A DNA stretch of 64,000 bases, taken from assembly GCA_945860595.1 (NCBI GenBank), contig CAMAQV010000007.1, positions 15,595 to 79,594 of the forward strand, written 5' to 3'. Position numbers and translations under genes: made by a program. The notes under the pieces are model-generated. The model ran no database searches. It had not been told where the DNA came from and worked only from the letters and a program-made list of their open reading frames with translations. The DNA comes from Comamonas sp. lk (lineage in GTDB: Bacteria; Pseudomonadota; Gammaproteobacteria; Burkholderiales; Burkholderiaceae_C). Shown here piece after piece: positions 18,121-29,959 of this stretch; within the stretch, counting starts at the first letter, position 1, and every line of letters begins with the position of its first letter.

Positions 18121-19089
18121 CTAGCGTTCTTTGACATAGGGTTTGCCGCTGGCCTTGGGGGCGACGGCTTTGCCGATGAAGCCGGCCAGCAAGATGACCG
18201 TGAGCAGGTAGGGCAGGGCTTGGATGGCTTGCACCGGTACCACGCCGATGCCGGGCAGCGCCACACCTTGCAGCCGCATGGCGATAGCGTCCAAAAATCC
18301 AAACAACAGGCAGGCCCACAGCGCCCCTGCGGGCTGCCAGCGCCCAAAGATCAGTGCGGCCAGCGCCATGAAGCCGCGCCCGGCGGTCATGTGCGGCGAA
18401 AAACTTGCGCTTTGGGCCAACACCAGGTAGCTACCTGCCAGCCCGCACAACAGGCCGTTCAGCACAAGCGCGCGGTAGCGCAGCCCGGCCACAGAGACAC
18501 CGGCGGCGTCCACCATCTGCGGGTTCTCGCCCACCGCCCGAAGGCGCAGGCCAAAGCGGGTGCGAAACAGCAGCCACCCGCTTGCCGGCACCAGCGCATA
18601 GGCCGCGTAAACCAGCGCGCTGTGCCCCAGCAGCGCCTCGCCCACGACCCGTCCCAGCAGCGGCACAAAGGCCAGCGCGTCCCCGGCCTGCGGTAGCAGC
18701 GGCTGCAGGCGGACGCCGGAGGCCAATGGAGGGGTTTGTCCACCCTGGTGGAACCAGGCAATGCCCAGCACTACCGTCAGCCCGGCTGCAATGATGTTGA
18801 TGGCCACGCCCGAAACCACCTGGTCCCCGGGGTAGCTCACGCAGGCCACTCCGTGCAGCATGGACAGCGCCACGCCTACCGCCATAGCCGCGACCAGCGC
18901 CAGCATCCAAGAGCCGCTGGCCGCGCCTGCAGCACCTGCGGCAAATGCGGCGAAAAGCATCTTTCCTTCCAAGCCGATGTCCACCACGCCCGAGCGTTCT
19001 GCGAACATACCTGCCAGCGCGCACAAAATCAGCGGCGTGGCCAGGCGCACGCTCGAGGCCAGCACCGAGGCGACGAGTACTTCATCCAC
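18121..19089 (-). CDS. Nucleoside/BMP-type ABC transporter permease
   Basis: ERSGVVDIGLEGKML, LRAVGENP and GRGFMALAALIFGRW motifs; hydrophobic. Confidence 0.9.
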   Translation of the reverse strand: MDEVLVASVLASSVRLATPLILCALAGMFAERSGVVDIGLEGKMLFAAFAAGAAGAASGSWMLALVAAMAVGVALSMLHGVACVSYPGDQVVSGVAINIIAAGLTVVLGIAWFHQGGQTPPLASGVRLQPLLPQAGDALAFVPLLGRVVGEALLGHSALVYAAYALVPASGWLLFRTRFGLRLRAVGENPQMVDAAGVSVAGLRYRALVLNGLLCGLAGSYLVLAQSASFSPHMTAGRGFMALAALIFGRWQPAGALWACLLFGFLDAIAMRLQGVALPGIGVVPVQAIQALPYLLTVILLAGFIGKAVAPKASGKPYVKER

Positions 19090-20191
19090 GGTGTGCCTTT
19101 GCCAGACCGGCGCCGCGCAGCATCCAGGCCAGCGGCGGTGCGATCACATAGGTCATGGCCCCTGAGAACAGCACCACAAAACCCTGCAACATCACCACCA
19201 TGTCCCGGCTGAAACCCGGCACGTCAAAAGCCAACTCGGCCCCGCCCTGAAACAGCGCGCCGAATAACAGGCTGGACAGCAGGATGCCCAGCGGGTGGTT
19301 GCGCCCCATCAGCGCCACGGCAATGCCGGTAAAGCCCGCGCCGCTGACAAATTCCAGCACCAGCTTGCCGCTGACACCGGCGACCTCGTTCATCCCGACC
19401 AGACCGGCTAGCGCGCCGGAAATGGCCATGGCCAGAATCACCTGGCGCTGTGGTCGAATTCCGGCGTAGGCAGCGGCCTGCGGGCTAGCGCCAACCGCGC
19501 GCAGCCGGTAGCCCGCGCGGGTGTGCCACACAAACAGGTACACCGCCAAGCAGGCGAGCAGGGCCAGCAGAAAACTGGTATTGAGCGGTGACGACGGCCA
19601 TTGCACCCCCACCCAGGCCAAGGCCGTCTGCGCAGAGGGCAGCTGGGCCGACGGCGCAAAGGGCATGCTTTCAATCGCCATATTGCCCGGCGGGCGCATG
19701 TGGTTGACCAGCAGGTACACCAGCAAAGTACTGGCCAAAAAGTTGAACATGATGGTGGTGATCACTACATGGCTGCCCCGGTAGGCCTGCAAATACGCGG
19801 GTATGGCCGCCCATACCATGCCGAACAATGCGCCCGCCAGCACCATGAGCGGCAGCATGGCCCAGGCTGGCAGCAGCGGTGCCCAGGCCAAGGCCACCAG
19901 TGCCACCCCCAAGCCACCCAGCGTGGCCTGGCCTTCACCGCCGATATTGAATAAGCCGCCGTGAAAAGCCACTGCTACGGCCAGGCCGGTGAAGATGAAG
20001 CTGGTGGTGTAGTACAGCGTGTAACTCAGACCCCGCGCACTGCCGAACGCACCTTGCACCAAAGCCGCCAGCACCTGCGCCGGACTCTGGCCTACCAGCG
20101 CCACCACCACACCCGCCACCAGCAGGGCGACGCCGAGGCATACGGCCGGCAGCAGCGCCACATCCGCCCAGCGCGGCAGCGTCTGCCTCAT
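19082..20191 (-). CDS. Nucleoside/BMP-type ABC transporter permease
   Basis: GLFNIGGEGQ, HVVITTIMFN and GFTGIAVALMGRNHP motifs; overlaps both neighbours. Confidence 0.9.
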   Translation of the reverse strand: MRQTLPRWADVALLPAVCLGVALLVAGVVVALVGQSPAQVLAALVQGAFGSARGLSYTLYYTTSFIFTGLAVAVAFHGGLFNIGGEGQATLGGLGVALVALAWAPLLPAWAMLPLMVLAGALFGMVWAAIPAYLQAYRGSHVVITTIMFNFLASTLLVYLLVNHMRPPGNMAIESMPFAPSAQLPSAQTALAWVGVQWPSSPLNTSFLLALLACLAVYLFVWHTRAGYRLRAVGASPQAAAYAGIRPQRQVILAMAISGALAGLVGMNEVAGVSGKLVLEFVSGAGFTGIAVALMGRNHPLGILLSSLLFGALFQGGAELAFDVPGFSRDMVVMLQGFVVLFSGAMTYVIAPPLAWMLRGAGLAKAHRG

Positions 20192-21741
20192 GCCCCGCCC
20201 CCGGCCATCAGCAGGCCCAGGCGGGCCTCGGTGCAGTCGCCAATGGCCAGGCTGCCCGTGACGCGGCCCTGGCTCATCACCAGCACACGGTCTGCGAGGG
20301 CCAGAATTTCGTCGAGTTCGCTGGACACCAGCAATACCGCGCCGCCCGCATCGCGCAGCGCCCGCAGCTGGGCGTAGATGAACTCAATAGCGCCTATGTC
20401 TACTCCGCGTGTGGGCTGGCCCACCAGCACAACCCGAGGCGCTTGCCCGAGCTCGCGGGCGAGCACCAGTTTTTGCTGGTTACCCCCCGAAAACTTGCTG
20501 CTCTGGAGGCGCACGTTGCGGGGGCGCACGTCAAAGCGTTCCATCAGCGCGGCCGTTGCGGTGTGCATAGCGTGTCTGCGCATCCACGGGCCGTGGCTGT
20601 ACTGGGGCGTGTCTTCGTAGCCCAGCACGGCCGACTCCCAGGCCGCAAACTCCATCACCAGCGCGCGCGCATGGCGGTCTTCGGGCACATGCGCCAGGCC
20701 CAGTGCACGGGCCTGGTGCGGGTCCAGCCAGGTGGGCGCTGCGTAGTGCATCCCGCCCAGCTCCAGGCCACCGCTCTGGGGCACGCGCAGGCCGCACAAG
20801 ACATCCAGCAGTTCACTCTGGCCGTTGCCAGCGACCCCGGCCACACCCACGATTTCTCCGGGGAAAAGGTCCACATCTACCGCGTGCATGCGCTGCACGC
20901 CCATTGCGTCACGCACGGTCAAGCCGCGCGCACGCAGCAAAGGCGCTGCGCTGGATTGCGGCGTGCCGGGTGCGGTGCCTTCCGAGCGCCCGGTGTGGAC
21001 TGTGCGTCCAACCATGGCTTGCGCCAGCGTCTCGATGCTGGCCTGCGTAATCGGCATGTCCTGCACCACCCGCCCGCCCCGCATGACCGTCACCCAGTCG
21101 CACAAGGCCATCACCTCTTTGAGCTTGTGGGTGATCAAAATCACTGTGGTGCCCTGCGCCCGCAGTTGCCGCAGCATTGCAAACAATTGCAGGGTTTCCT
21201 GCGGCGTCAGCACTGCGGTGGGCTCGTCCAAAATCAAGATGCGTGCGCCCCGGTACAAGGCTTTCAAAATCTCCAGCCTTTGCCGGTCGCCTACCGCCAG
21301 ATCAGCGACCAGAGCGTCTAACGGAACAAGCAGCCCGGTGGATTGCATCAGGGACTCCAGGCGTGCACGCACAGGCCGTGCCGCTTGGTTCAAGAGCCAA
21401 TGCGGCTCGGCACCCAGCATCACGTTGTCCAGCGCGCTCAGGGTGTCGACCAGCATGAAGTGCTGGTGCACCATGCCGATACCCAGGGCGATCGCATCGT
21501 CCGCATTACGGATATCCGCAGGCACACCAAACACCGCCACCGTGCCACTGTCTGCTGGGTAAAAGCCGTAGAGCACCGACATCAGCGTGCTTTTGCCGGC
21601 GCCGTTTTCACCCACGATGCCGTGCACCGTGCCCGCCCGAACCGTTAGGTCGACATCGGCATTGGCCGCGACTGCAGCAAAACGCTTGCAGATGCCATGC
21701 ATCTGCACCGCGAGAGATTGTTCTGCATCAGCCGGGTTCAT
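20188..21741 (-). CDS. Nucleoside ABC transporter ATP-binding protein (two cassettes)
   Basis: GENGAGKST, LILDEPTAVL, FSGGNQQK and QPTRGVDIGA. Confidence 0.92.
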   Translation of the reverse strand: MNPADAEQSLAVQMHGICKRFAAVAANADVDLTVRAGTVHGIVGENGAGKSTLMSVLYGFYPADSGTVAVFGVPADIRNADDAIALGIGMVHQHFMLVDTLSALDNVMLGAEPHWLLNQAARPVRARLESLMQSTGLLVPLDALVADLAVGDRQRLEILKALYRGARILILDEPTAVLTPQETLQLFAMLRQLRAQGTTVILITHKLKEVMALCDWVTVMRGGRVVQDMPITQASIETLAQAMVGRTVHTGRSEGTAPGTPQSSAAPLLRARGLTVRDAMGVQRMHAVDVDLFPGEIVGVAGVAGNGQSELLDVLCGLRVPQSGGLELGGMHYAAPTWLDPHQARALGLAHVPEDRHARALVMEFAAWESAVLGYEDTPQYSHGPWMRRHAMHTATAALMERFDVRPRNVRLQSSKFSGGNQQKLVLARELGQAPRVVLVGQPTRGVDIGAIEFIYAQLRALRDAGGAVLLVSSELDEILALADRVLVMSQGRVTGSLAIGDCTEARLGLLMAGGGA

Positions 21742-21784
21742 CGCGGGCCGGTCTCAGCGTGCGTGTGCGTGCCGGCCCGCATGA
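21738..21784 (-). promoter_or_regulatory. Intercistronic stem-loop between the BMP gene and the ATPase gene, pairing the ATPase start codon
   Basis: GCGGGCCGG (21743-21751) and CCGGCCCGC (21772-21780) form a perfect 9-bp inverted repeat, extended by TCAT/ATGA across a 1-nt bulge. Confidence 0.5.
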
Positions 21785-21794
21785 GCGCAAGCAG

Positions 21795-22775
21795 TCAGTA
21801 CTTGCAGGCGTTATCGGCCATGTAGTCGGCCACTTTGATCTTGCCGCTGATGATGTCGGCCTTGGCAGCGTCGACCTTCTTCTTCATATCGGCGGTCACC
21901 AGCTTGGCGTTGTTGGCATCCATGGCGTAGTCCACGCCACCTTCTTTCAAGCCCAGCACCGTGATGCCGGGGGCGAACGATTTGGAGACGTTGTAAACCG
22001 CCACGTCGACGCGCTTGAGCATGGAGGTCAGCATGGTGCCCGGCTGCAGGTGGTTCTGGTTGCTGTCCACGCCGACGGCAAGTTTGCCGCTGTCTTTGGC
22101 GGCCTGGTAGACGCCGACGCCGGTGCCGCCTGCTGCGGCAAACACCACGTCTGCGCCTTTGGCGAATTGCGCCTTGGCCAGCTCACCGCCACGGCTTGGG
22201 TCGTTCCAGGCCGCGCCAGTGGTACCGGTCATGTTGGCGAATACTTCGGCTTTGGCGTTGGCAAATTTGGCACCCTGCTCGTAGCCGCACTGAAACCGGC
22301 GGATGAGCGGAATGTCCATGCCGCCCACAAAGCCGACCTTGCCGGTTTTACTGGCCATGGCGGCCATGGCGCCGACTAGAAAACTGCCTTCCTGCTCCTT
22401 GAATACCACCGACTGCACATTGGGCAGGCCGACTACCATGTCGACGATCACAAAGTTGAGCTTGGGAAATTCCTTGGCGACTTTTTCAATGGCCGAGGCC
22501 TGCGAAAAGCCCACGCCGATGATGGGGCTAGCGCCTTTTTCGGCCATGCGGCGGATCGCCTGTTCGCGCTGCGATTCATTGGCAATTTCGAACTCCAGAT
22601 ACTGCTTGCCGGTTTCTTTTTTCCAGGCTTCCATGCCGACAAAAGCGGCCTCGTTGAACGACTTGTCGAATTTGCCCCCCATGTCGTAGACGATGGCGGG
22701 TTCGGCGGCAGCGGCAAACGATGCCGCTGTTGCGACGCTGACAAGCGTTAAGCGGGCGAGGGTGGAAAACTGCAT
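21795..22775 (-). CDS. BMP-family ABC substrate-binding protein (purine/nucleoside type)
   Basis: GGKFDKSFNE, FKEQEGSFLVG, VFAAAGGTG and GVDSNQNHL. Signal peptide from MQFSTLARL. Confidence 0.9.
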   Translation of the reverse strand: MQFSTLARLTLVSVATAASFAAAAEPAIVYDMGGKFDKSFNEAAFVGMEAWKKETGKQYLEFEIANESQREQAIRRMAEKGASPIIGVGFSQASAIEKVAKEFPKLNFVIVDMVVGLPNVQSVVFKEQEGSFLVGAMAAMASKTGKVGFVGGMDIPLIRRFQCGYEQGAKFANAKAEVFANMTGTTGAAWNDPSRGGELAKAQFAKGADVVFAAAGGTGVGVYQAAKDSGKLAVGVDSNQNHLQPGTMLTSMLKRVDVAVYNVSKSFAPGITVLGLKEGGVDYAMDANNAKLVTADMKKKVDAAKADIISGKIKVADYMADNACKY

Positions 22776-22955
22776 GAGAGAACTCCCTGAAAAATGGGTG
22801 GATGAACAGAGTGGCTGGGTGCAAATAGTATCCACAAACCCGCGCCGCACGCGCAAACTTTGGCGCCTGCTGCGCGGGGTCATCCGTCACAATAGCCAGA
22901 CACGCTGCGTGGCGCTTGAGTCCGCTGCGCAATTTTTCACCGGAAAGTGGGCCCC

Positions 22956-23843
22956 ATGATTCTGATTGCCGGTTCTGCCAACCTGGACTTTGTGGTGCGG
23001 GCGCACCATATTCCCGCGCCGGGGGAGACGGTGCTGGGGCAAAGTTTTCAGACTTTTCCCGGTGGCAAGGGGGCGAACCAGGCAGTGGCCTGCGCGCGAG
23101 CGGGCGGGGCCGTTACCCATTTTTTGACCGGGCTGGGCGCGGATGCTTTTGCGATGCCACTCGAGGCGTCGTTGCGGGACGCGGGGGTGCAGCTCCATGC
23201 CGTGCGGCCCGAGGGCCAGCCCACCGGAACCGCGTTCATCTGCGTCTCGGATGCGGGCGAAAACGCCATCACTGTTGCACCCGGCGCCAACAGCAGTCTG
23301 CGGCCCGAACACCTGTTGTCGCTGGACGGCTTTAGCCACCTGCTCATGCAGCTTGAGATTCCGCTGGAGACGGTACAGGCCTATGCGCAGGCAGCGCGCG
23401 CGGCTGGTATGGCTGTGGTGCTGAATGCAGCGCCGGCACGCGCCCTGCCGCAAAGCCTGCTGGATGTAGTGGACGTTTTAATCGTCAACGAGGGTGAGCT
23501 TGCTGCGCTGACGGGCCCGTCTGGTGATGTTGCCCAGCGCATGGCCATGCTGACTTTGCCGACGCTGGTGGTGACCTTGGGCGCACGCGGATGTGTGGCG
23601 CGCCACCACGGGGCTCTGTACGAACAAGCCGCCTTTGCTGTGGATGTGGTGGACAGCACCGGCGCGGGCGACACCTTTTGTGGCACGCTGCTGGCCGCTT
23701 GGAGCGCGGGTGCCGATATGGCTGCCGCGCTGCGCCGCGCCAGTGCGGCGGCTGCCCTGGCCTGCACCCGCATGGGCGCGCAGTCCAGCGTTCCTACTGT
23801 GGACGAAGTCGATCAATTCTTGGAAAGCCATCCCCAGCCATGA
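22956..23843 (+). CDS. rbsK: Ribokinase (PfkB family)
   Basis: GSANLD, PGGKGANQAVA, LNAAPA, VNEGE and VDSTGAGDTF. Confidence 0.88.
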   Translation: MILIAGSANLDFVVRAHHIPAPGETVLGQSFQTFPGGKGANQAVACARAGGAVTHFLTGLGADAFAMPLEASLRDAGVQLHAVRPEGQPTGTAFICVSDAGENAITVAPGANSSLRPEHLLSLDGFSHLLMQLEIPLETVQAYAQAARAAGMAVVLNAAPARALPQSLLDVVDVLIVNEGELAALTGPSGDVAQRMAMLTLPTLVVTLGARGCVARHHGALYEQAAFAVDVVDSTGAGDTFCGTLLAAWSAGADMAAALRRASAAAALACTRMGAQSSVPTVDEVDQFLESHPQP

Positions 23844-24844
23844 GCAACTCTGCGCCCCGCAAAGTGATTTACGACACCGACCCGGGTGTGGACGACGCCA
23901 TGGCGCTGTACTACGCGCTGGCGCATCCGGGTATCGATGTCGTCGGCATTACTACCACGTTCGGCAATGTGACGGTGGAGCAGGCCGCGACTAACGCCCT
24001 CTACCTGTGTGCGCTGGCGCAGCAGGCTTTACCGGTTACGCGGGGCGTGGCGCGGCCCTGGGTCAAGCCCGGCGAAGCGCCGCCCGCCCACATCCACGGC
24101 GCGGACGGCTTGGGTAATTTGCCGCAGCGCGCACCGCATGGGATGATGCTGGATCCGCGCCCGTCGGCGCAGTTCATCGTGGATATGGCGCGCGCCCATC
24201 CCGGTGAGATCACGCTGGTGGCGGTGGGGCCGCTGGGCAATGTAGCGGCTGCGCTGCTGCTGGAGCCGCGGCTGCCGCAGTTGCTGCAGGAAGTGATCAT
24301 CATGGGCGGCACCGTGCTGGAGCCGGGCAATGTGTCGCCGGTAGCCGAAGCCAATGTCTGGAACGACCCGCACGCCGCCGACATCGTCTTCAACGCCGGC
24401 TGGAAGATCACCATGGTGGGCTTGGATGTGACGCACCGCCTGATCCTGCCAGTCAGCCTGTTTGCGCGCATCGCCGCCCACCATCAGCATTCAGCTACTG
24501 ACACGCTCTTGCATGCGGTCAATTTTTACGCCGGCTTTTACAGCGACTTGTATCCGCACGTGGCCGCTATCTACGGCTGCTTCGGACACGATGTGCTGGC
24601 CTTTATTTACCTCAGCAACCCGGAGCTCTTTAGCCTGGAGCATGGCCGTGTGCGCGTGGTCACCGAGGGGCTGGCGCAGGGGCAAACCGTGCTGCGGCGC
24701 AAAACCATTCCCTACCCCCAAGCCGGTTGGGATCCCCAGACACCCGCTACCGCTGTATGCATGCAGGTCGACCATGCAGGGGCGGCCGATGTGTTCACCC
24801 GCACCATGCTCGGCGACTGGCTGCGCCCCGCGCATCCGGCTTGA
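23840..24844 (+). CDS. Nucleoside hydrolase (IU-NH family)
   Basis: DTDPGVDD Ca-binding motif, IHGADGLG, GPLGN, AEANVWNDP and GHD. ATG 23840 overlaps the rbsK stop. Confidence 0.92.
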   Translation: MSNSAPRKVIYDTDPGVDDAMALYYALAHPGIDVVGITTTFGNVTVEQAATNALYLCALAQQALPVTRGVARPWVKPGEAPPAHIHGADGLGNLPQRAPHGMMLDPRPSAQFIVDMARAHPGEITLVAVGPLGNVAAALLLEPRLPQLLQEVIIMGGTVLEPGNVSPVAEANVWNDPHAADIVFNAGWKITMVGLDVTHRLILPVSLFARIAAHHQHSATDTLLHAVNFYAGFYSDLYPHVAAIYGCFGHDVLAFIYLSNPELFSLEHGRVRVVTEGLAQGQTVLRRKTIPYPQAGWDPQTPATAVCMQVDHAGAADVFTRTMLGDWLRPAHPA

Positions 24845-24857
24845 AAGACTGCACACC

Positions 24858-25724
24858 ATGCGCACACCGCCCGCTTCTGACCCGCACCTGCCCATCGTGG
24901 ACTTCGCTGACGCGGACGCGCCCCGCGCCTTTGTGGCCAGCCTGCACCACACCGGGTTTGCGGTCCTGAAAAACCACCCGCTGGATCAGGCGCTGGTGGA
25001 CGGAATTTACGCCGAATGGTTGAATTTTTTCCACAGCGCGGCGAAGTTTGATTACCCCTTCAACACCCAGACGCACGACGGCTACTTTTCCACTGCCGTG
25101 TCGGAGACGGCCAAAAACCACAGCACCAAAGACGTCAAAGAGTTTTTTCATGTTTACCCATGGGGCCAGTACCCGGCGCAGGTCAGTGATGCCGCACTGC
25201 GCTACTACGCGCGCGGCAAAGAACTCGCCACCACCCTGTTGCAGTGGGTGCAAGACGGCTCACCGCCGGACGTGCGTGCGCGGTATTCGCAGCCTTTGCC
25301 CGCGATGCTCGAGGGCAGCGAACACACGCTGCTGCGGGTGCTGCATTACCCGCCATTGAGCGGCCAGGAGGAGCCGGGTGCTATGCGGGCTGCGCCGCAC
25401 GGCGACATCAATTTGCTCACCATCCTGCCGGCCGCTACCGAGCCGGGTTTGCAGGTTCTGGGCACCAATGGCGACTGGCACGACGTGCCCTGTGACTTCG
25501 GCCTTTTGATCGTCAACATCGGTGACATGTTGGAGGAGGCATCAGGCCGCTACTTTCCGTCCACGGTACACCGCGTGCTCAATCCGGTGGGCGAAGCGGC
25601 GCGCAAGTCCCGGGTCTCGCTGCCGCTGTTTTTGCACCCGCGCAAAGAGGTCGTTCTGTCAGACCGCTACACCGTGGGCAGCTATTTTGAGGAGCGCATC
25701 CGCGAGCTGCGCATCAACGGCTAA
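24858..25724 (+). CDS. 2-oxoglutarate/Fe(II)-dependent oxygenase (IPNS/DIOX-like)
   Basis: LRVLHYPP, HGD (HxD), STVHRV (distal His) and RVS (RxS 2OG-binding). Start placed at ATG 24858. Confidence 0.88.
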   Translation: MRTPPASDPHLPIVDFADADAPRAFVASLHHTGFAVLKNHPLDQALVDGIYAEWLNFFHSAAKFDYPFNTQTHDGYFSTAVSETAKNHSTKDVKEFFHVYPWGQYPAQVSDAALRYYARGKELATTLLQWVQDGSPPDVRARYSQPLPAMLEGSEHTLLRVLHYPPLSGQEEPGAMRAAPHGDINLLTILPAATEPGLQVLGTNGDWHDVPCDFGLLIVNIGDMLEEASGRYFPSTVHRVLNPVGEAARKSRVSLPLFLHPRKEVVLSDRYTVGSYFEERIRELRING

Positions 25725-25744
25725 GCGCGGCGCGGGCGGCCTGC

Positions 25745-26941
25745 TCAGCCCGCAAATGCGGCGATGCCGGTCATCGCACGGCCCAAGATCAGGGCGTGGA
25801 TGTCGTGCGTGCCCTCGTAGGTGTTGACCACTTCAAGGTTGACCAAGTGGCGCGCCACACCGAACTCGTCGCTGATGCCGTTGCCACCCATCATGTCGCG
25901 CGCCATGCGGGCGATGTCCAGGGCTTTGCCGCAGGAGTTGCGCTTCAAGATGGAGGTGATTTCCACGCTGGCCGTGCCTTCGTCTTTCATGCGCCCCAGG
26001 CGCAAGCAGCCTTGCAGACCGAGCGAGATTTCGGTTTGCATGTCGGCCAACTTCTTTTGAATCAACTGGTTGGCGGCCAAGGGGCGGCCAAACTGCTGAC
26101 GGTCCAGCGTGTATTGACGGGCGCGGTGCCAGCAGTCTTCGGCGGCACCCAAGGCGCCCCAGGCGATGCCGTAGCGCGCGCTGTTCAAGCAGGTGAACGG
26201 GCCTTTCAAGCCTTGCACGTCGGGGAAGGCGTTTTCTTCGGGCACAAACACGCCGTCCATCACGATTTCACCAGTGATCGAGGCTCGCAAACCCACCTTG
26301 CCGTGGATGGCGGGGGCGCTCAAGCCCTTCATGCCTTTTTCCAAAATGAAGCCGCGGATAGGGCCCACTTGACCGCCTTCGCTGACCTCTTTGGCCCACA
26401 CCACAAACACGTCCGCAATCGGGCTGTTGGAGATCCACATCTTGGAGCCGCTCAATGTGTAGCCGCCCGGCACTTTCTGCGCGCGGGTCACCATGCTTTG
26501 CGGGTCCGAGCCGTGGTCGGGCTCGGTTAGGCCGAAGCAGCCTATGGTCTGGCCGGTGGCGAGTTGGGGCAGGTATTTCTGGCGCTGTGCTTCGGTGCCG
26601 AATTCAAAAATCGGCAGCATCACCAGCGAGCTTTGTACGCTCATCATGGAGCGGTAACCGCTGTCCACGCGCTCCACTTCGCGCGCAATCAGGCCGTAGG
26701 CCACGTAACCCAGCGCCGGGCCGCCGTAGGCTTCGGGGATGGTGGGGCCGAGCAGGCCGAGCTCGCCCATTTCACGGAAGATGGCCGGATCCGTGGTTTC
26801 GTTGCGAAAGGCCTGTGTGACGCGCGGCAGCAGTTTGTCCTGGCAGTAGGCGGCGGCGGCATCGCGCACCATGCGCTCGTCGTCGCTGAGTTGGGCGTCC
26901 AGCAAAAAAGGGTCTTGCCATTGGAATGCGGCGTGGGCCAT
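25745..26941 (-). CDS. gcdH: Glutaryl-CoA dehydrogenase
   Basis: [45 protein letters not shown] and TYEGTHDIH. Start at MAHAAFQW. Confidence 0.92.
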
Positions 26942-27021
26942 GAAAAGGGTCTCCGAAAGCGCAAACCCGCCGACATGGCGGGTCGTGGCATGGCTTGAAG
27001 TGTACTGAGGCCCCGCCCGGC

Positions 27022-27858
27022 ATGGGCGACACTTGGGGCTTGCCATTCACCCTGTCCGTGCTGAACCGATTGACCTCTTTCGCCTCTTGGGCGTCTACTT
27101 ACGCCGCTCTCGCCACGGGGCTCGCTGCCGCACTGCTCCCGTGCGGCGTGGCGCAGGCCTGGGGTCCGGTGGGTCACCAAACTGTAGCGATGGCCGCCCG
27201 CGCCCAGCTCACCCCCGAGGCCTTGGTTCATTTGCAGGAACTCATGGCCCTGGAGCCCGGCACCATTCTGGCGGAGCTTGCCACCTGGGCCGACGAACAT
27301 CGCAGCCCCGAGACCGGTCCCTGGCATTACGTCAACTTGCCCCCTGGTGATTGCAATTACCGCCCCGCCCGCGATTGCCCGGACGGACAGTGCATCGTCG
27401 CCGTGCTGGACGCACAGCTGCGGATATTGGATTCCCGGGCACCGCCGACCGAGCGCTTGCAGGCGCTGAAATGGGTGGTGCATCTGGTCGCAGACCTGCA
27501 CCAGCCGCTGCACGCCGGCATGGCCGAAGACCGGGGCGGCAACCGCTACCAGCTGCAGTTTTTGCTGCGCTGGAGCAATTTGCACGCGCTGTGGGATTCG
27601 GGCCTGATCCACCATATGGGTGAGGACGCGCCGACCCTGGCGGCGCGCCTGGCCCGCCAGTTCTGGCCATCCTCGCCGGGGAGTTTGAGCGTGCGTGCCG
27701 CAGCGGAGGAGTCCTGCAAGATAGCCCGCCAACCCGGCTTTTACCCCTCGGATACCGTGGGGCAGGACTACATCAGGGCCTACACGCCCATCGTGGAGCA
27801 GCGACTCTGGCTTGCCAGCGTGCGCCTGGCAGCGCTGTTGAACCGGGCTTTGCGGTAG
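27022..27858 (+). CDS. Secreted S1/P1-family nuclease (start uncertain)
   Basis: Signal-like stretch ending AQA followed by WGPVGH, then [18 protein letters not shown] and LHALWD, which supply the tri-zinc ligands. Confidence 0.88.
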
Positions 27859-27894
27859 ATTGGCCTTATTCAGACTTTGCGAGCCCCACACGCC

Positions 27895-29034
27895 ATGACC
27901 CACACAACAAGTCCCGCCGACTCCGGCATTGTCCAGCTCACCATCAGCCCGCGCATCCGGCGCTCGGCTTTTTATGCGGCCACGGTGCGCGATGGCGTCA
28001 GCCATTTCACGGTCTACAACAAGATGCTGATGCCTCTGTCCTTCGGCCACTTATCAGCCGAATACCAGCGCCTGATGCACGGTGTGGCCATGTGGGACGT
28101 GGCGGTGGAGCGCCAGGTGGAAGTCAGCGGCCCCGACGCGCATGCGCTGGTGCAGGCCCTGAGCGCGCGTGATCTCAGCCGCATGCAAGTCGGGCAGGGC
28201 AAATACGTGGCCATGTGCGACCACAGCGGGCGCTTGCTCAACGACCCGGTGCTGCTCAAGCTGTCGGACCGCTACTGGTTTTCGCTAGCCGACAGCGACA
28301 TGCTGATGTGGGTGCGTGCGGTGGCCGCCGAGCGGGGCTTCAACGTGGCCGTCTGCGAGCCGGACGTCTCGCCCCTGGCGATCCAGGGCCCCAAGGCCGA
28401 GGCGCTGGCGGCCAAGCTGTTTGGCGCGCATGTGCGGGCCATCAAATACTTCGGCTGCATTGAGACTGATTTGCAGGGCATCCCCTTGGTCTTGTGCCGT
28501 TCGGGCTGGAGCAAGCAAGGCGGCTTTGAGCTGTTTTTGCGCGACGGCAGCCGGGGTGATGAACTCTGGGAACTGGTCAAAGCGGCGGGCCAGGAATTCG
28601 GCATCGGCCCGGGCGCGCCCAACCACATTGAGCGTGTGGAAAGTGGCCTGCTGTCCTGGGGCGGCGACACCACGGCGGACACCAACCCGTTTGAAGCCAA
28701 TATGGCCAAATTTGTCGATGTGGACTGCGCAGCGGATTACATCGGCAAAGCCGCTTTGCAAAAAATCGCAGCGAATGGCCCGGCGCGTTTGATGGTGGGT
28801 TTGCGTCTGGATGGGCAGGCCCCGTCGGACTGGCCCCTGATTGAGCGTGCGCCGGTTTTGCTGAACGGCAGTCAGGTTGGCACCCTGTCGGCGGTGGTCT
28901 TCTCACCTGCCTTGAAATGCACCATCGGCATCGCCCAGGTCCAGCGCGAAGTCGTGCAGGCGGGGCAGCGGGTGCAGGTGCTCACGCCCATCGGCCTGCA
29001 AGGCGCTGTGACCCAGGCCTTGCCCTTTATTTAA
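27895..29034 (+). CDS. GcvT-family THF-dependent methyltransferase, DMSP demethylase (DmdA)-like
   Basis: VYNKMLMP, WDVAVERQV, LNDPV, SLADSD, EPDVSPLAIQGP, RSGWSKQGGFE and PNHIERVESGLLSWG match my recollection of DmdA rather than GcvT. No gcvH or gcvP nearby. Confidence 0.8.
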   Translation: MTHTTSPADSGIVQLTISPRIRRSAFYAATVRDGVSHFTVYNKMLMPLSFGHLSAEYQRLMHGVAMWDVAVERQVEVSGPDAHALVQALSARDLSRMQVGQGKYVAMCDHSGRLLNDPVLLKLSDRYWFSLADSDMLMWVRAVAAERGFNVAVCEPDVSPLAIQGPKAEALAAKLFGAHVRAIKYFGCIETDLQGIPLVLCRSGWSKQGGFELFLRDGSRGDELWELVKAAGQEFGIGPGAPNHIERVESGLLSWGGDTTADTNPFEANMAKFVDVDCAADYIGKAALQKIAANGPARLMVGLRLDGQAPSDWPLIERAPVLLNGSQVGTLSAVVFSPALKCTIGIAQVQREVVQAGQRVQVLTPIGLQGAVTQALPFI

Positions 29035-29959
29035 CCGCAGCGTCCACCCGGCGCGGCCAGGGCAGGCTGCCCCACATGCCGCTGGACATCGACGTGCCCG
29101 CCACGATGACCAGCGCGCAGGTCACCATCCAGGGCGTGACCACTTCGCCGAAAAACACCACGCCGTAGAGCACTGCAAACATGGGGATGGCAAAGGTCAC
29201 CGACAGCGTGCGCGCGGGTCCAGCGCGCTGGATCAAGCGGAAAAATAGCAAATACGCCGATCCGGTGCACAAGACCCCCAGCGTCAACGCCGACAGCCAA
29301 GCTGCGTGCGACACCGCTTGTTCTGGCCAGTAATAGAAGGTCAAAGGCGCCATCGCTACGCTGGCGCCGAGCTGGCTGCCCGCCGCCATCACCAGCGGCG
29401 GTACACCCGTGGCAAAGCGCTTGGTGATGCTGGCGGCTAGTCCGTAGCAGACGCAGGCAAACAGGCAGGCCACCACGGCCCAACCGGTGGCAGTACCACC
29501 CGGCACCGGCTCGAAGCTGACCTTATCCCAGGCCAGCATGGCAACGCCGCCAAAGCCGATAGCCAGCCCCAGCATGCGCGTTGCATTCGGCCGGTCCTTG
29601 AGCCAGACCCAGGCCACCAGCGCCCCGAACAGCGGGACGGTGGCGTTCAAGATGGATGACAGACCGATAGAAATCGACAAGAGCGCAAAGGTAAAGCAGG
29701 CAAAAGGAATCGCCGAATTCAGCAGGCCAATCGACAAAGCCAGTTTCCAGTGCGTCCGCAAATCCCGTAGCAGACCGCGCATCGCCAGCAGCGGCACCAG
29801 CATCAAAGCAGCGATGCCAACACGCAGACCCGCGGTGGGCAGCGCGCCGAACTCCACCGTGGCGATGCGCATGAACATAAATGAGGCACCCCAAATCGCC
29901 GCCAGCAACACAAACTCCACCTGCCAGGGCGGCGAAAAATTCTTCAAGGGGAAATTCAT
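29027..29959 (-). CDS. DMT/EamA-family transporter
   Basis: About 10 TM segments; IWGASFMFMRIA, LLNSAIPF and ILNATVPLF. ATG overlaps the ogt stop. Confidence 0.88.
   Translation of the reverse strand: MNFPLKNFSPPWQVEFVLLAAIWGASFMFMRIATVEFGALPTAGLRVGIAALMLVPLLAMRGLLRDLRTHWKLALSIGLLNSAIPFACFTFALLSISIGLSSILNATVPLFGALVAWVWLKDRPNATRMLGLAIGFGGVAMLAWDKVSFEPVPGGTATGWAVVACLFACVCYGLAASITKRFATGVPPLVMAAGSQLGASVAMAPLTFYYWPEQAVSHAAWLSALTLGVLCTGSAYLLFFRLIQRAGPARTLSVTFAIPMFAVLYGVVFFGEVVTPWMVTCALVIVAGTSMSSGMWGSLPWPRRVDAAVK

Follow-up and report, generated by a model that had tools for sequence, protein, structure and literature searches.

A stand-alone DmdA-family gene in a Comamonas genome, sister to the proven DMSP demethylases

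Introduction

Does Comamonas sp. lk carry a demethylase for dimethylsulfoniopropionate (DMSP)? The question is raised by one gene in a stretch of 64,000 nucleotides from this organism (GenBank assembly GCA_945860595.1, contig CAMAQV010000007.1, positions 15,595 to 79,594), hereafter called the window. An earlier reading made from the letters alone (the sequence-only reading) had taken this gene for a stand-alone relative of dmdA in an unexpected lineage. DMSP demethylation counts as a marine trait, found in Alphaproteobacteria, SAR11 and some Gammaproteobacteria. One review describes the demethylation pathway as restricted to Alphaproteobacteria (PMC5395565).

Concentrations of DMSP in lakes may match those of the ocean (PMC10674015), and genes resembling dmdA have been reported from lake metagenomes (PMC7887784). 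It is therefore plausible, and no more than a moderate surprise, to meet a DMSP demethylase in fresh water. The locus described here names candidate consumers of lake DMSP: small-genome planktonic Comamonadaceae and Acidimicrobiia. Our comparisons place the encoded protein in a sister branch of the proven enzymes, and judging from its sequence we lean towards a function as DMSP:tetrahydrofolate methyltransferase.

A DmdA-family protein with the GcvT fold

The gene in question is the following:

27895..29034, + strand: predicted tetrahydrofolate (THF)-dependent methyltransferase gene of the DmdA family (group II, 'F-clade', both described below), assigned from its translation, Pfam, NF009133 and trees

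It translates without internal stops into 379 aa. An alternative TTG start lies at 27877, 18 nt upstream of the ATG, and it is the ATG that was called as start on an identical contig in public records. The protein matches the Pfam families GCV_T (138 bits) and GCV_T_C, and in Foldseek an AlphaFold2 model of it (pLDDT 89.9, pTM 0.87) superposes on the DmdA of P. ubique (3tfh_A) with TM scores of 0.92/0.94 and a root-mean-square deviation of 1.7 A, where GcvT structures reach about 0.87. A sequence search of solved structures gives the same order, with P. ubique DmdA best at 278 bits and GcvT next at 123 bits. Among NCBIfam models the best is NF009133, the DMSP demethylase equivalog, at 389.3 bits; the next are trimethylamine N-oxide (TMAO) demethylase at 172 and GcvT at 164 bits. 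Thus, the query protein has the three-domain GcvT fold and falls within the DmdA family, broadly defined; it is not an ordinary GcvT.

The signature residues fit this assignment closely. The eight blocks quoted by the sequence-only reading are all present in the translation (SPRIRRSAF, VYNKMLMP, WDVAVERQV, LNDPV, SLADSD, EPDVSPLAIQGP, RSGWSKQGGFE and PNHIERVESGLLSWG), and 108 of the 114 columns conserved among 51 other DmdA-like rows are kept. The motif RSGWSKQGG(F/Y)E includes W205 and E212 of the query, which correspond to W197 and E204 of P. ubique DmdA. In the numbering of a published analysis these are W171, a key residue of the interaction with DMSP, and E178, a folate-binding residue (PMC7487153). 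The active-site comparison that the sequence-only reading had proposed finds these two residues kept and two others changed: Tyr206 and Ala193 are Phe (F214) and Cys (C201) in the query. Tyr206 of 3TFH is listed as folate-binding, as 'Y180', in the same study (PMC7487153).

Could the protein nevertheless be an ordinary aminomethyltransferase, that is, a spare GcvT or the partner that binds THF for an oxidase or dehydrogenase, making 5,10-methylene-THF and playing no part in sulfonium chemistry? Its two GcvT domains would allow this, its homologs are mostly named 'aminomethyltransferase' or 'glycine cleavage system T' by their sources, and it is one of ten GcvT-fold genes in the genome, nine of which are others. 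We consider the idea highly improbable, and sequence comparison leaves an ordinary GcvT role effectively excluded. The GcvT models score far under their cut-offs (NF001567, 163.5 bits vs 300; TIGR00528, 131.4 vs 235.85; NF010093, 110.5 vs 459), and the GcvT motif GYTGE is replaced by GWSKQ. The true GcvT of the genome is encoded on contig C6, where it scores 529 bits on NF010093 and adjoins a 1032-aa GcvP-like open reading frame; the query shares 26% identity with it in a first-pass alignment. Identities to the other GcvT-fold proteins of the genome were 18-26% in that alignment, in which several paralog rows, though not that of the true GcvT (L005), stood in wrong-strand translation, and in every later tree the query lies far from them. 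Finally, the description of the gene as coding for a 379-aa GcvT-fold protein without gcvH or gcvP neighbours is borne out: both are absent within 10 kb either side of it, and no oxidase partner gene adjoins it.

A sister branch of the proven enzymes

Where in the DmdA family does the protein stand? Our final tree (IQ-TREE, 61 rows, LG+C20+F+G4) divides the family into two groups. Group I (17 rows, support 100/100) holds both proven types, the SAR11_0246 type of P. ubique and the SPO1913 type of R. pomeroyi. Group II (22 rows, 98/83) holds the query together with SAR116, other Roseobacter copies, Hydrogenophaga and many metagenome-assembled genomes (MAGs) from lake and soil. The two groups form a joint clade (99/95) that excludes more distant lineages, in which the active-site strand reads TGWSGE, SGWSPE or TGYTGE where the DmdA family has SGWSKQ. 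Scores on NF009133 track the split, with 431-681 bits in group I, 376-423 in group II and 343-391 in the outside lineages. Since the query falls in group II and the scores follow the same division, it is a sister-group relative of the proven enzymes and is not nested among them.

The likeness to DmdA claimed by the sequence-only reading therefore holds in one sense, for the protein resembles DmdA more than any ordinary GcvT, and needs correcting in another, for it lies outside the clade of the proven DmdAs and under the NF009133 cut-off. That reading had named a place outside the DmdA clade, among ordinary GcvT-like paralogs, as the outcome that would count against it. The place we find is outside, as a sister group, and away from those paralogs.

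The tree includes a Ruegeria alba protein, L135, and its relatives. Upstream of L135 lies a gene for a GntR-type regulator and downstream of it one for an AcuI-like reductase. On NF009133 L135 reaches 634 bits, compared with 613 for the SAR11 gene, and it carries VYNHMLLP, WDVACERQV, EPDVSPLAVQGP, RSGWSKQGGFE and PNNIERVESGLLSYG. These are all the motifs that the sequence-only reading had given for Ruegeria DmdA, so that its quotation was accurate. In a first tree, made from 81 rows without L135, the query had branched between P. ubique DmdA and a clade with another R. alba protein, L056, the best Ruegeria match (384 bits on NF009133). We rejected L056 as the SPO1913 ortholog: the R. alba genome has three DmdA-family members, and the one linked to dmdR and acuI is L135. 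With the tree rebuilt around L135 we also gave up the view that the query is bracketed by proven DmdAs and that the curated NF009133 cut-off of 410 bits is uninformative; on rescoring, the cut-off separates group I.

The query's closer relatives form what we call the F-clade (23 rows, support 99-100), marked by Phe at position 206 and Cys or Ser at position 193.

DMSP or another methyl donor?

As a DMSP demethylase, the cytoplasmic enzyme would move one S-methyl group from DMSP, its presumed substrate, to THF, yielding 3-methylmercaptopropionate (MMPA) and 5-methyl-THF. DMSP would be taken up by one of four OpuAC-type ATP-binding cassette (ABC) systems, because the genome has no BCCT carrier. 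5-Methyl-THF would feed methionine synthesis or the one-carbon oxidation network on which this genome relies heavily (Tdm, an enzyme like dimethylglycine dehydrogenase (DMGDH), several SoxA-family enzymes). The fate of MMPA is uncertain: it may be excreted, or it may be handled by a generic ligase (33%), a DmdC-type acyl-CoA dehydrogenase (ACAD; 56%) and crotonases (percentages are identities to operon enzymes described below), and the methanethiol would then be captured by MetY.

Does the query lie too far from the proven enzymes to share their substrate? It is 44% identical to the R. pomeroyi type (L135) and 38% to P. ubique DmdA. The DmdAs of SAR92, 'peripheral to clades A-E', share 38-40% identity with the R. 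pomeroyi enzyme and 35-39% with that of P. ubique, and an R. pomeroyi dmdA mutant supplied with them made methanethiol again (PMC10746254). Judged by these identities, DmdA activity extends at least as far from the reference enzymes as the query lies.

The competing explanation that we take seriously, and rate as possible and clearly less likely than DMSP demethylation, is that the protein is a paralog of DmdA whose substrate has shifted. The chemistry, methyl transfer to THF, would be the same and the donor another sulfonium or quaternary ammonium compound: S-methylmethionine, dimethylsulfonioacetate, dimethylsulfoxonium propionate (DMSOP), gonyol-type compounds or a betaine. Either group II as a whole or the F-clade alone would have diverged from group I. 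These are the same two readings, DMSP demethylation or a paralog for a related onium compound, between which the sequence-only reading had hesitated.

Several observations weigh against DMSP as the substrate, and most of them suit a shifted one. The query lies outside the smallest clade that contains both biochemically proven types (support 100/100), as a sister to it, and misses the equivalog cut-off of NF009133 (389.3 vs 410 bits). Lineages that clearly lack the DmdA motif score about as high as the query (P0123, 391 bits; L133, 378); the NF009133 score alone cannot tell the query from them. We know of no biochemically tested member of group II. Single Roseobacter genomes often carry groups I and II together, and in the genus of R. 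alba group I occurs in five of five species and group II in two of five, so that the first is core and the second accessory; this co-occurrence suggests that the two groups may not be redundant. Two substitutions run through the whole F-clade: position 206, two residues from the folate-binding Glu, is Phe in 23 of 23 F-clade rows and Tyr in 50 of 51 others, and position 193, where others have Ala, is Cys or Ser (Cys in 21 of 23). Linkage to dmdB, dmdC, dmdD/acuH, acuI or dmdR was found neither within 10 kb either side of the query gene nor in five other F-clade contexts. In fact, the gene stands alone in every F-clade locus, and at one of them (L098) its neighbours include genes for osmolytes and quaternary amines, among them creatinase/M24-type and PhnD-like ones. 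The genome itself, specialised in the demethylation of methylated amines, lacks not only a BCCT carrier but also a DmdD-like hydratase, having only generic crotonases (31-35% identity to the hydratase of the Marivivens operon introduced below), and its DmdC-type ACAD adjoins etfAB in a housekeeping arrangement.

Against a shifted substrate stand the residues themselves. The query retains every one of the 49 columns that groups I and II have in common as conserved (49/49), and the six columns that discriminate the groups differ mostly conservatively (T/S, D/E, H/R, C/G, G/A, L/V). Phe206 is also found in some group I rows other than the proven enzymes (P0149, P0151, P0154). Reisch and colleagues reportedly found in 2008 that, of the betaines and sulfonium compounds they assayed, the two proven enzymes accept DMSP alone. 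The operons of group II genes, to which we now turn, argue in the same direction, for they end in a gene that NCBI's annotation pipeline (PGAP) names methylthioacryloyl-CoA hydratase, or adjoin MetY, which fits a thioether product such as MMPA.

We also considered whether A193C and Y206F form a compensating cross-strand pair, an idea that the predicted model does not support: with strands at 196-202 and 210-215, a simple hairpin register would put C201 and F214 on opposite faces.

Group II genes in other genomes

On plasmid NZ_CP127166 of Marivivens sp. LCG002, a divergent LysR gene precedes an operon of the group II gene, an AMP-binding protein, an acyl-CoA dehydrogenase and dmdD, the last gene being the hydratase named by PGAP. 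This group II gene shares 51% identity with the query and 71% with the group II copy of R. alba. PGAP calls it 'glycine cleavage T C-terminal barrel domain-containing protein', a generic name from which it follows that it likewise falls under the equivalog cut-off.

Related arrangements recur. In Rhizobium sp. FKL33 and Limoniibacter an enoyl-CoA hydratase and a long DmdC-type dehydrogenase lie directly 3' of the group II gene, and in gammaproteobacterial MAGs and Rhodobacteraceae SAT2 short and long dehydrogenases stand beside it. In lake MAGs, among them KR1 and Ki2-D3, the O-acetylhomoserine sulfhydrylase MetY is found near it. Such a sulfhydrylase can fix methanethiol. In all, group II loci with a hydratase, ACAD, ligase or MetY as neighbours are L078, L061, L068, L047, L083 and L063.

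Some loci deserve mention in their own right. In KR1 (L047, 7989-13682) and Ki2-D3 (L083), the group II dmdA is followed by a long dehydrogenase of DmdC type in convergent orientation, and then by MetY, an alpha/beta hydrolase and a peroxiredoxin (Redoxin/AhpC-TSA). An enzyme that removes peroxide, so near to demethylation genes, echoes the connection with the DmdF peroxidase reported for Roseobacters (PMC12992908). The chromosome of Hydrogenophaga sp. RWCD_12 (L085, 1352728-1353810) carries a group II gene with 73% identity to the R. alba group II copy; it is therefore a second, independent DmdA-family type in Comamonadaceae, here in a cultured betaproteobacterium. Plasmid CP104104.1 of Phaeobacter sp. 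G2, which is associated with Emiliania huxleyi, has a stand-alone group II gene (L138, 51% identity to the query), and 2.3 kb from it lies a 'trimethylamine methyltransferase family' (MttB-like) gene of the family found in the cupin operon of the query genome.

The rest of the genome

What else would a DMSP demethylase find in this cell? The genome (2.8 Mb, 99% complete) encodes a long dehydrogenase of DmdC type, 56% identical over its full length to the enzyme of the Marivivens operon, and a CoA ligase 33% identical to the ligase of that operon. In functional SAR92 strains the corresponding identities of the three kinds of enzyme to those of R. pomeroyi are 31-33%, 43-45% and 30-35% (PMC10746254). 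There are two copies of MetY and four OpuAC-type binding proteins. The genome search suggested by the sequence-only reading thus recovered a DmdC-type ACAD, MetY, OpuAC proteins and, in addition, a cupin of the DMSP_lyase family; DmdD and BCCT were what it did not recover.

THF-linked demethylases are unusually many. They include the TMAO demethylase Tdm (1124 bits, over the NCBIfam cut-off, its gene cut by the contig end) and a DMGDH-like enzyme; there are also three or four SoxA-family (sarcosine-oxidase-type) proteins and two further GcvT-like proteins. The loci of this GcvT-fold and demethylase repertoire are:

C73:875-1852
C20:27553-28530
C45
C71
C17
C20:23084-24031
C5:60670-61677
C47

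Two of the SoxA-family proteins are near-identical and lie on different contigs. Such a repertoire of methylated-amine demethylases in a 2.8-Mb genome is reminiscent of SAR11 and Roseobacter.

The DMSP_lyase-family cupin (PF16867, 212 aa, 188.7 bits vs a cut-off of 27) is encoded in an operon of its own:

Contig C26, ~23043-28345 (L140, 3043-8345), outside the window: cupin operon behind a divergent LysR gene

The operon comprises an MttB-family methyltransferase (555 aa, PF06253, 745 bits), an oxidoreductase with flavin mononucleotide- and flavin adenine dinucleotide-binding parts of the old yellow enzyme (OYE)/FadH type (681 aa) and, last, the cupin; its last two genes overlap by 4 nt. The LysR protein resembles GcvA and the choline-sulfate regulator. 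The cupin is weakly similar to solved DddQ (27-31 bits) and keeps the cupin metal motif. Taken together, a lyase-family cupin, an ene-reductase-type flavoprotein and an MttB homolog without pyrrolysine look, from their families, like an uncharacterised pathway for onium compounds. Across the genus a PF16867 cupin is present in only 6 of 159 genomes; four of these score high, and three of the four have a dmdA of the query type as well, an association confounded by shared ancestry.

Around the gene

Two genes flank dmdA:

27022..27858, + strand: S1/P1 nuclease gene (Pfam PF02265 on the identical public contig), ending 36 nt 5' of the dmdA start
29027..29959, - strand: EamA/DMT-family transporter gene (Pfam EamA; TIGR00950/YedA-like, below cut-off)

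The nuclease gene and dmdA are probably co-transcribed; no promoter-like site was found between them, and promoter-like or terminator-like sites around dmdA are not conspicuous. We regard the nuclease as context and not as part of the function. On the other side, dmdA and the EamA gene are convergent and, reading their stop codons, overlap by 8 nt at their 3' ends. Further neighbours are Ogt and, on the opposite strand 0.9 kb upstream of dmdA, an ACAD of 398 aa resembling glutaryl-CoA dehydrogenase (GcdH).

The absence of dmdB, dmdC and dmdD homologs from the window, noted in the sequence-only reading, is confirmed; the best homologs lie on other contigs. DmdC queries match a single protein in the window, the GcdH-like ACAD, at 26-28% identity. 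We rejected it as a DmdC: at 398 aa it lacks the PF12806 tail and has only that identity to DmdC-type enzymes.

Elsewhere in the window, positions 18121-25724 hold a nucleoside-scavenging cluster (a BMP-family lipoprotein, an ABC ATPase, two permeases, a ribokinase and a nucleoside hydrolase), followed by a 311-aa 2-oxoglutarate-Fe(II) oxygenase that matches no NCBIfam model. The S1/P1 nuclease 5' of dmdA, a secreted enzyme, may share a theme of nucleic-acid scavenging with this cluster.

A patchy gene, probably moved between phyla

How did the gene come to be here? Within the F-clade, six freshwater Burkholderiales rows (74-93% identity to the query) are nested among Acidimicrobiia (61-67%), next to single Gaiellales and Chthoniobacterales rows. 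The gene clade thus appears, from this nesting, to have its source in Acidimicrobiia. Earlier studies had annotated dmdA in marine and lake members of that class (PMC4337565, PMC7887784). The nearest named records are Comamonadaceae/Burkholderiales MAGs (74-91% identity). The freshwater origin of the host is judged by how the closest MAG records and samples are named.

No neighbour gene is conserved across the F-clade: the site is a different one in each Burkholderiales genome, and the Acidimicrobiia contexts differ too. One of the latter, L098 (1-11107 of a 4.16-Mb contig), has the F-clade homolog behind the PhnD-like binding protein, in an island with GBBH/TauD-like, BKACE, IclR, EamA and creatinase/M24-type genes. 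It is a neighbourhood of osmolyte or quaternary-amine catabolism, and its M24 protein has the size of DddP.

A close homolog is present in 2 of 301 sampled genomes of the query's GTDB family. Within the genus, DmdA-family genes occur in 21 of 159 species and fall into three or four types at the least: 91-94% identical to the query in seven genomes (its own included), 70-82% in four, 54-55% in six and 45% in four. The carriers are mostly MAGs of 2-2.6 Mb. Among the genomes listed, which leave aside 118 genomes with no match, the closed ones (3.6-4.7 Mb) have no DmdA-family gene. This patchiness suggests repeated acquisition by planktonic lineages. It also tempers the earlier surprise: the lineage is less unexpected than claimed, with DmdA-family genes in these 21 species and commonly in lake and soil MAGs and Acidimicrobiia.

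The insertion site can be followed through the genus. The EamA gene is present in 55 of 61 genomes, and the order Ogt-EamA is kept with or without dmdA. The S1/P1 nuclease-dmdA insertion beside Ogt-EamA is confined to the query's closest species, its order with EamA being kept in the sister species G306 and G351; in others the DNA on the far side of EamA varies. Homologs in Acidimicrobiales and in a Rhodobacteraceae MAG likewise have an EamA gene beside them, from which came the idea that EamA and dmdA had travelled as a two-gene module. We rejected it: EamA is resident in those 55 genomes irrespective of dmdA, and the query-side EamA protein shares 26% identity with the one beside the Acidimicrobiales homolog. 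The composition of dmdA (GC content 0.636; 0.803 at third codon positions) equals that of its neighbours, so composition gives no signal of transfer. These data fit a transfer in which an ancestor of one subclade within the genus received dmdA as a single gene, beside a resident EamA gene.

As a broader and rather doubtful proposal, we envision the F-clade, with its Phe206 and Cys/Ser193, as a functionally distinct freshwater branch of DmdA. It might be the main bacterial sink of lake DMSP or a demethylase for another algal onium compound, and the subclade might have gained its kit, the stand-alone demethylase and the MttB/OYE-FadH/cupin operon, by separate transfers.

Significance and comparison with known systems

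A large sister branch of DmdA is thus named 'glycine cleavage T' by annotation pipelines, even though some of its members sit in dmdBCD operons. Surveys with the strict model therefore overlook this branch, and loose ones also take in clearly different lineages with equal scores. What the find adds is a further member, gained by horizontal transfer, to a known family, and not a new mechanism.

How does the query compare with its known relatives? With GcvT it shares the fold and the THF-binding domain; GcvT differs in sequence (26% identity), in its motif (GYTGE vs GWSKQ), in its linkage to gcvP and in its product, 5,10-methylene-THF. The characterised DmdA of P. ubique HTCC1062 (PDB 3TFH/3TFI/3TFJ) is like the query in fold, in the motif RSGWSKQGG(F/Y)E, in W197 and E204 and in the 49 conserved columns. 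It differs in sequence (37-38% identity), as a group I enzyme, in Tyr206 and Ala193 (Phe and Cys in the query) and in its NF009133 score (613 vs 389). R. pomeroyi DSS-3 DmdA (SPO1913, clade A), represented here by L135 of R. alba, shares with the query the blocks quoted by the sequence-only reading and the superclade of groups I and II. At 44% identity it too is a group I enzyme (634 bits on NF009133), and it belongs to a regulated dmdR/dmdA/acuI locus, whereas the query gene stands alone behind a nuclease gene.

The SAR92 DmdAs (HTCC2207, H921, H231; PMC10746254), compared with the query by published identities only, lie at a similar or greater distance from both references; they differ as marine gammaproteobacterial genes in a dmdA-acuH-dmdB-dmdC cluster. 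Closest in kind is the Marivivens gene, which shares with the query its branch (group II), 51% identity and a score below the equivalog cut-off. It differs in its marine Roseobacter-type host, in being operonic with the pathway and in lying among the group II members that have Tyr206 and Ala193; the query gene was inserted singly, and its host is a freshwater one.

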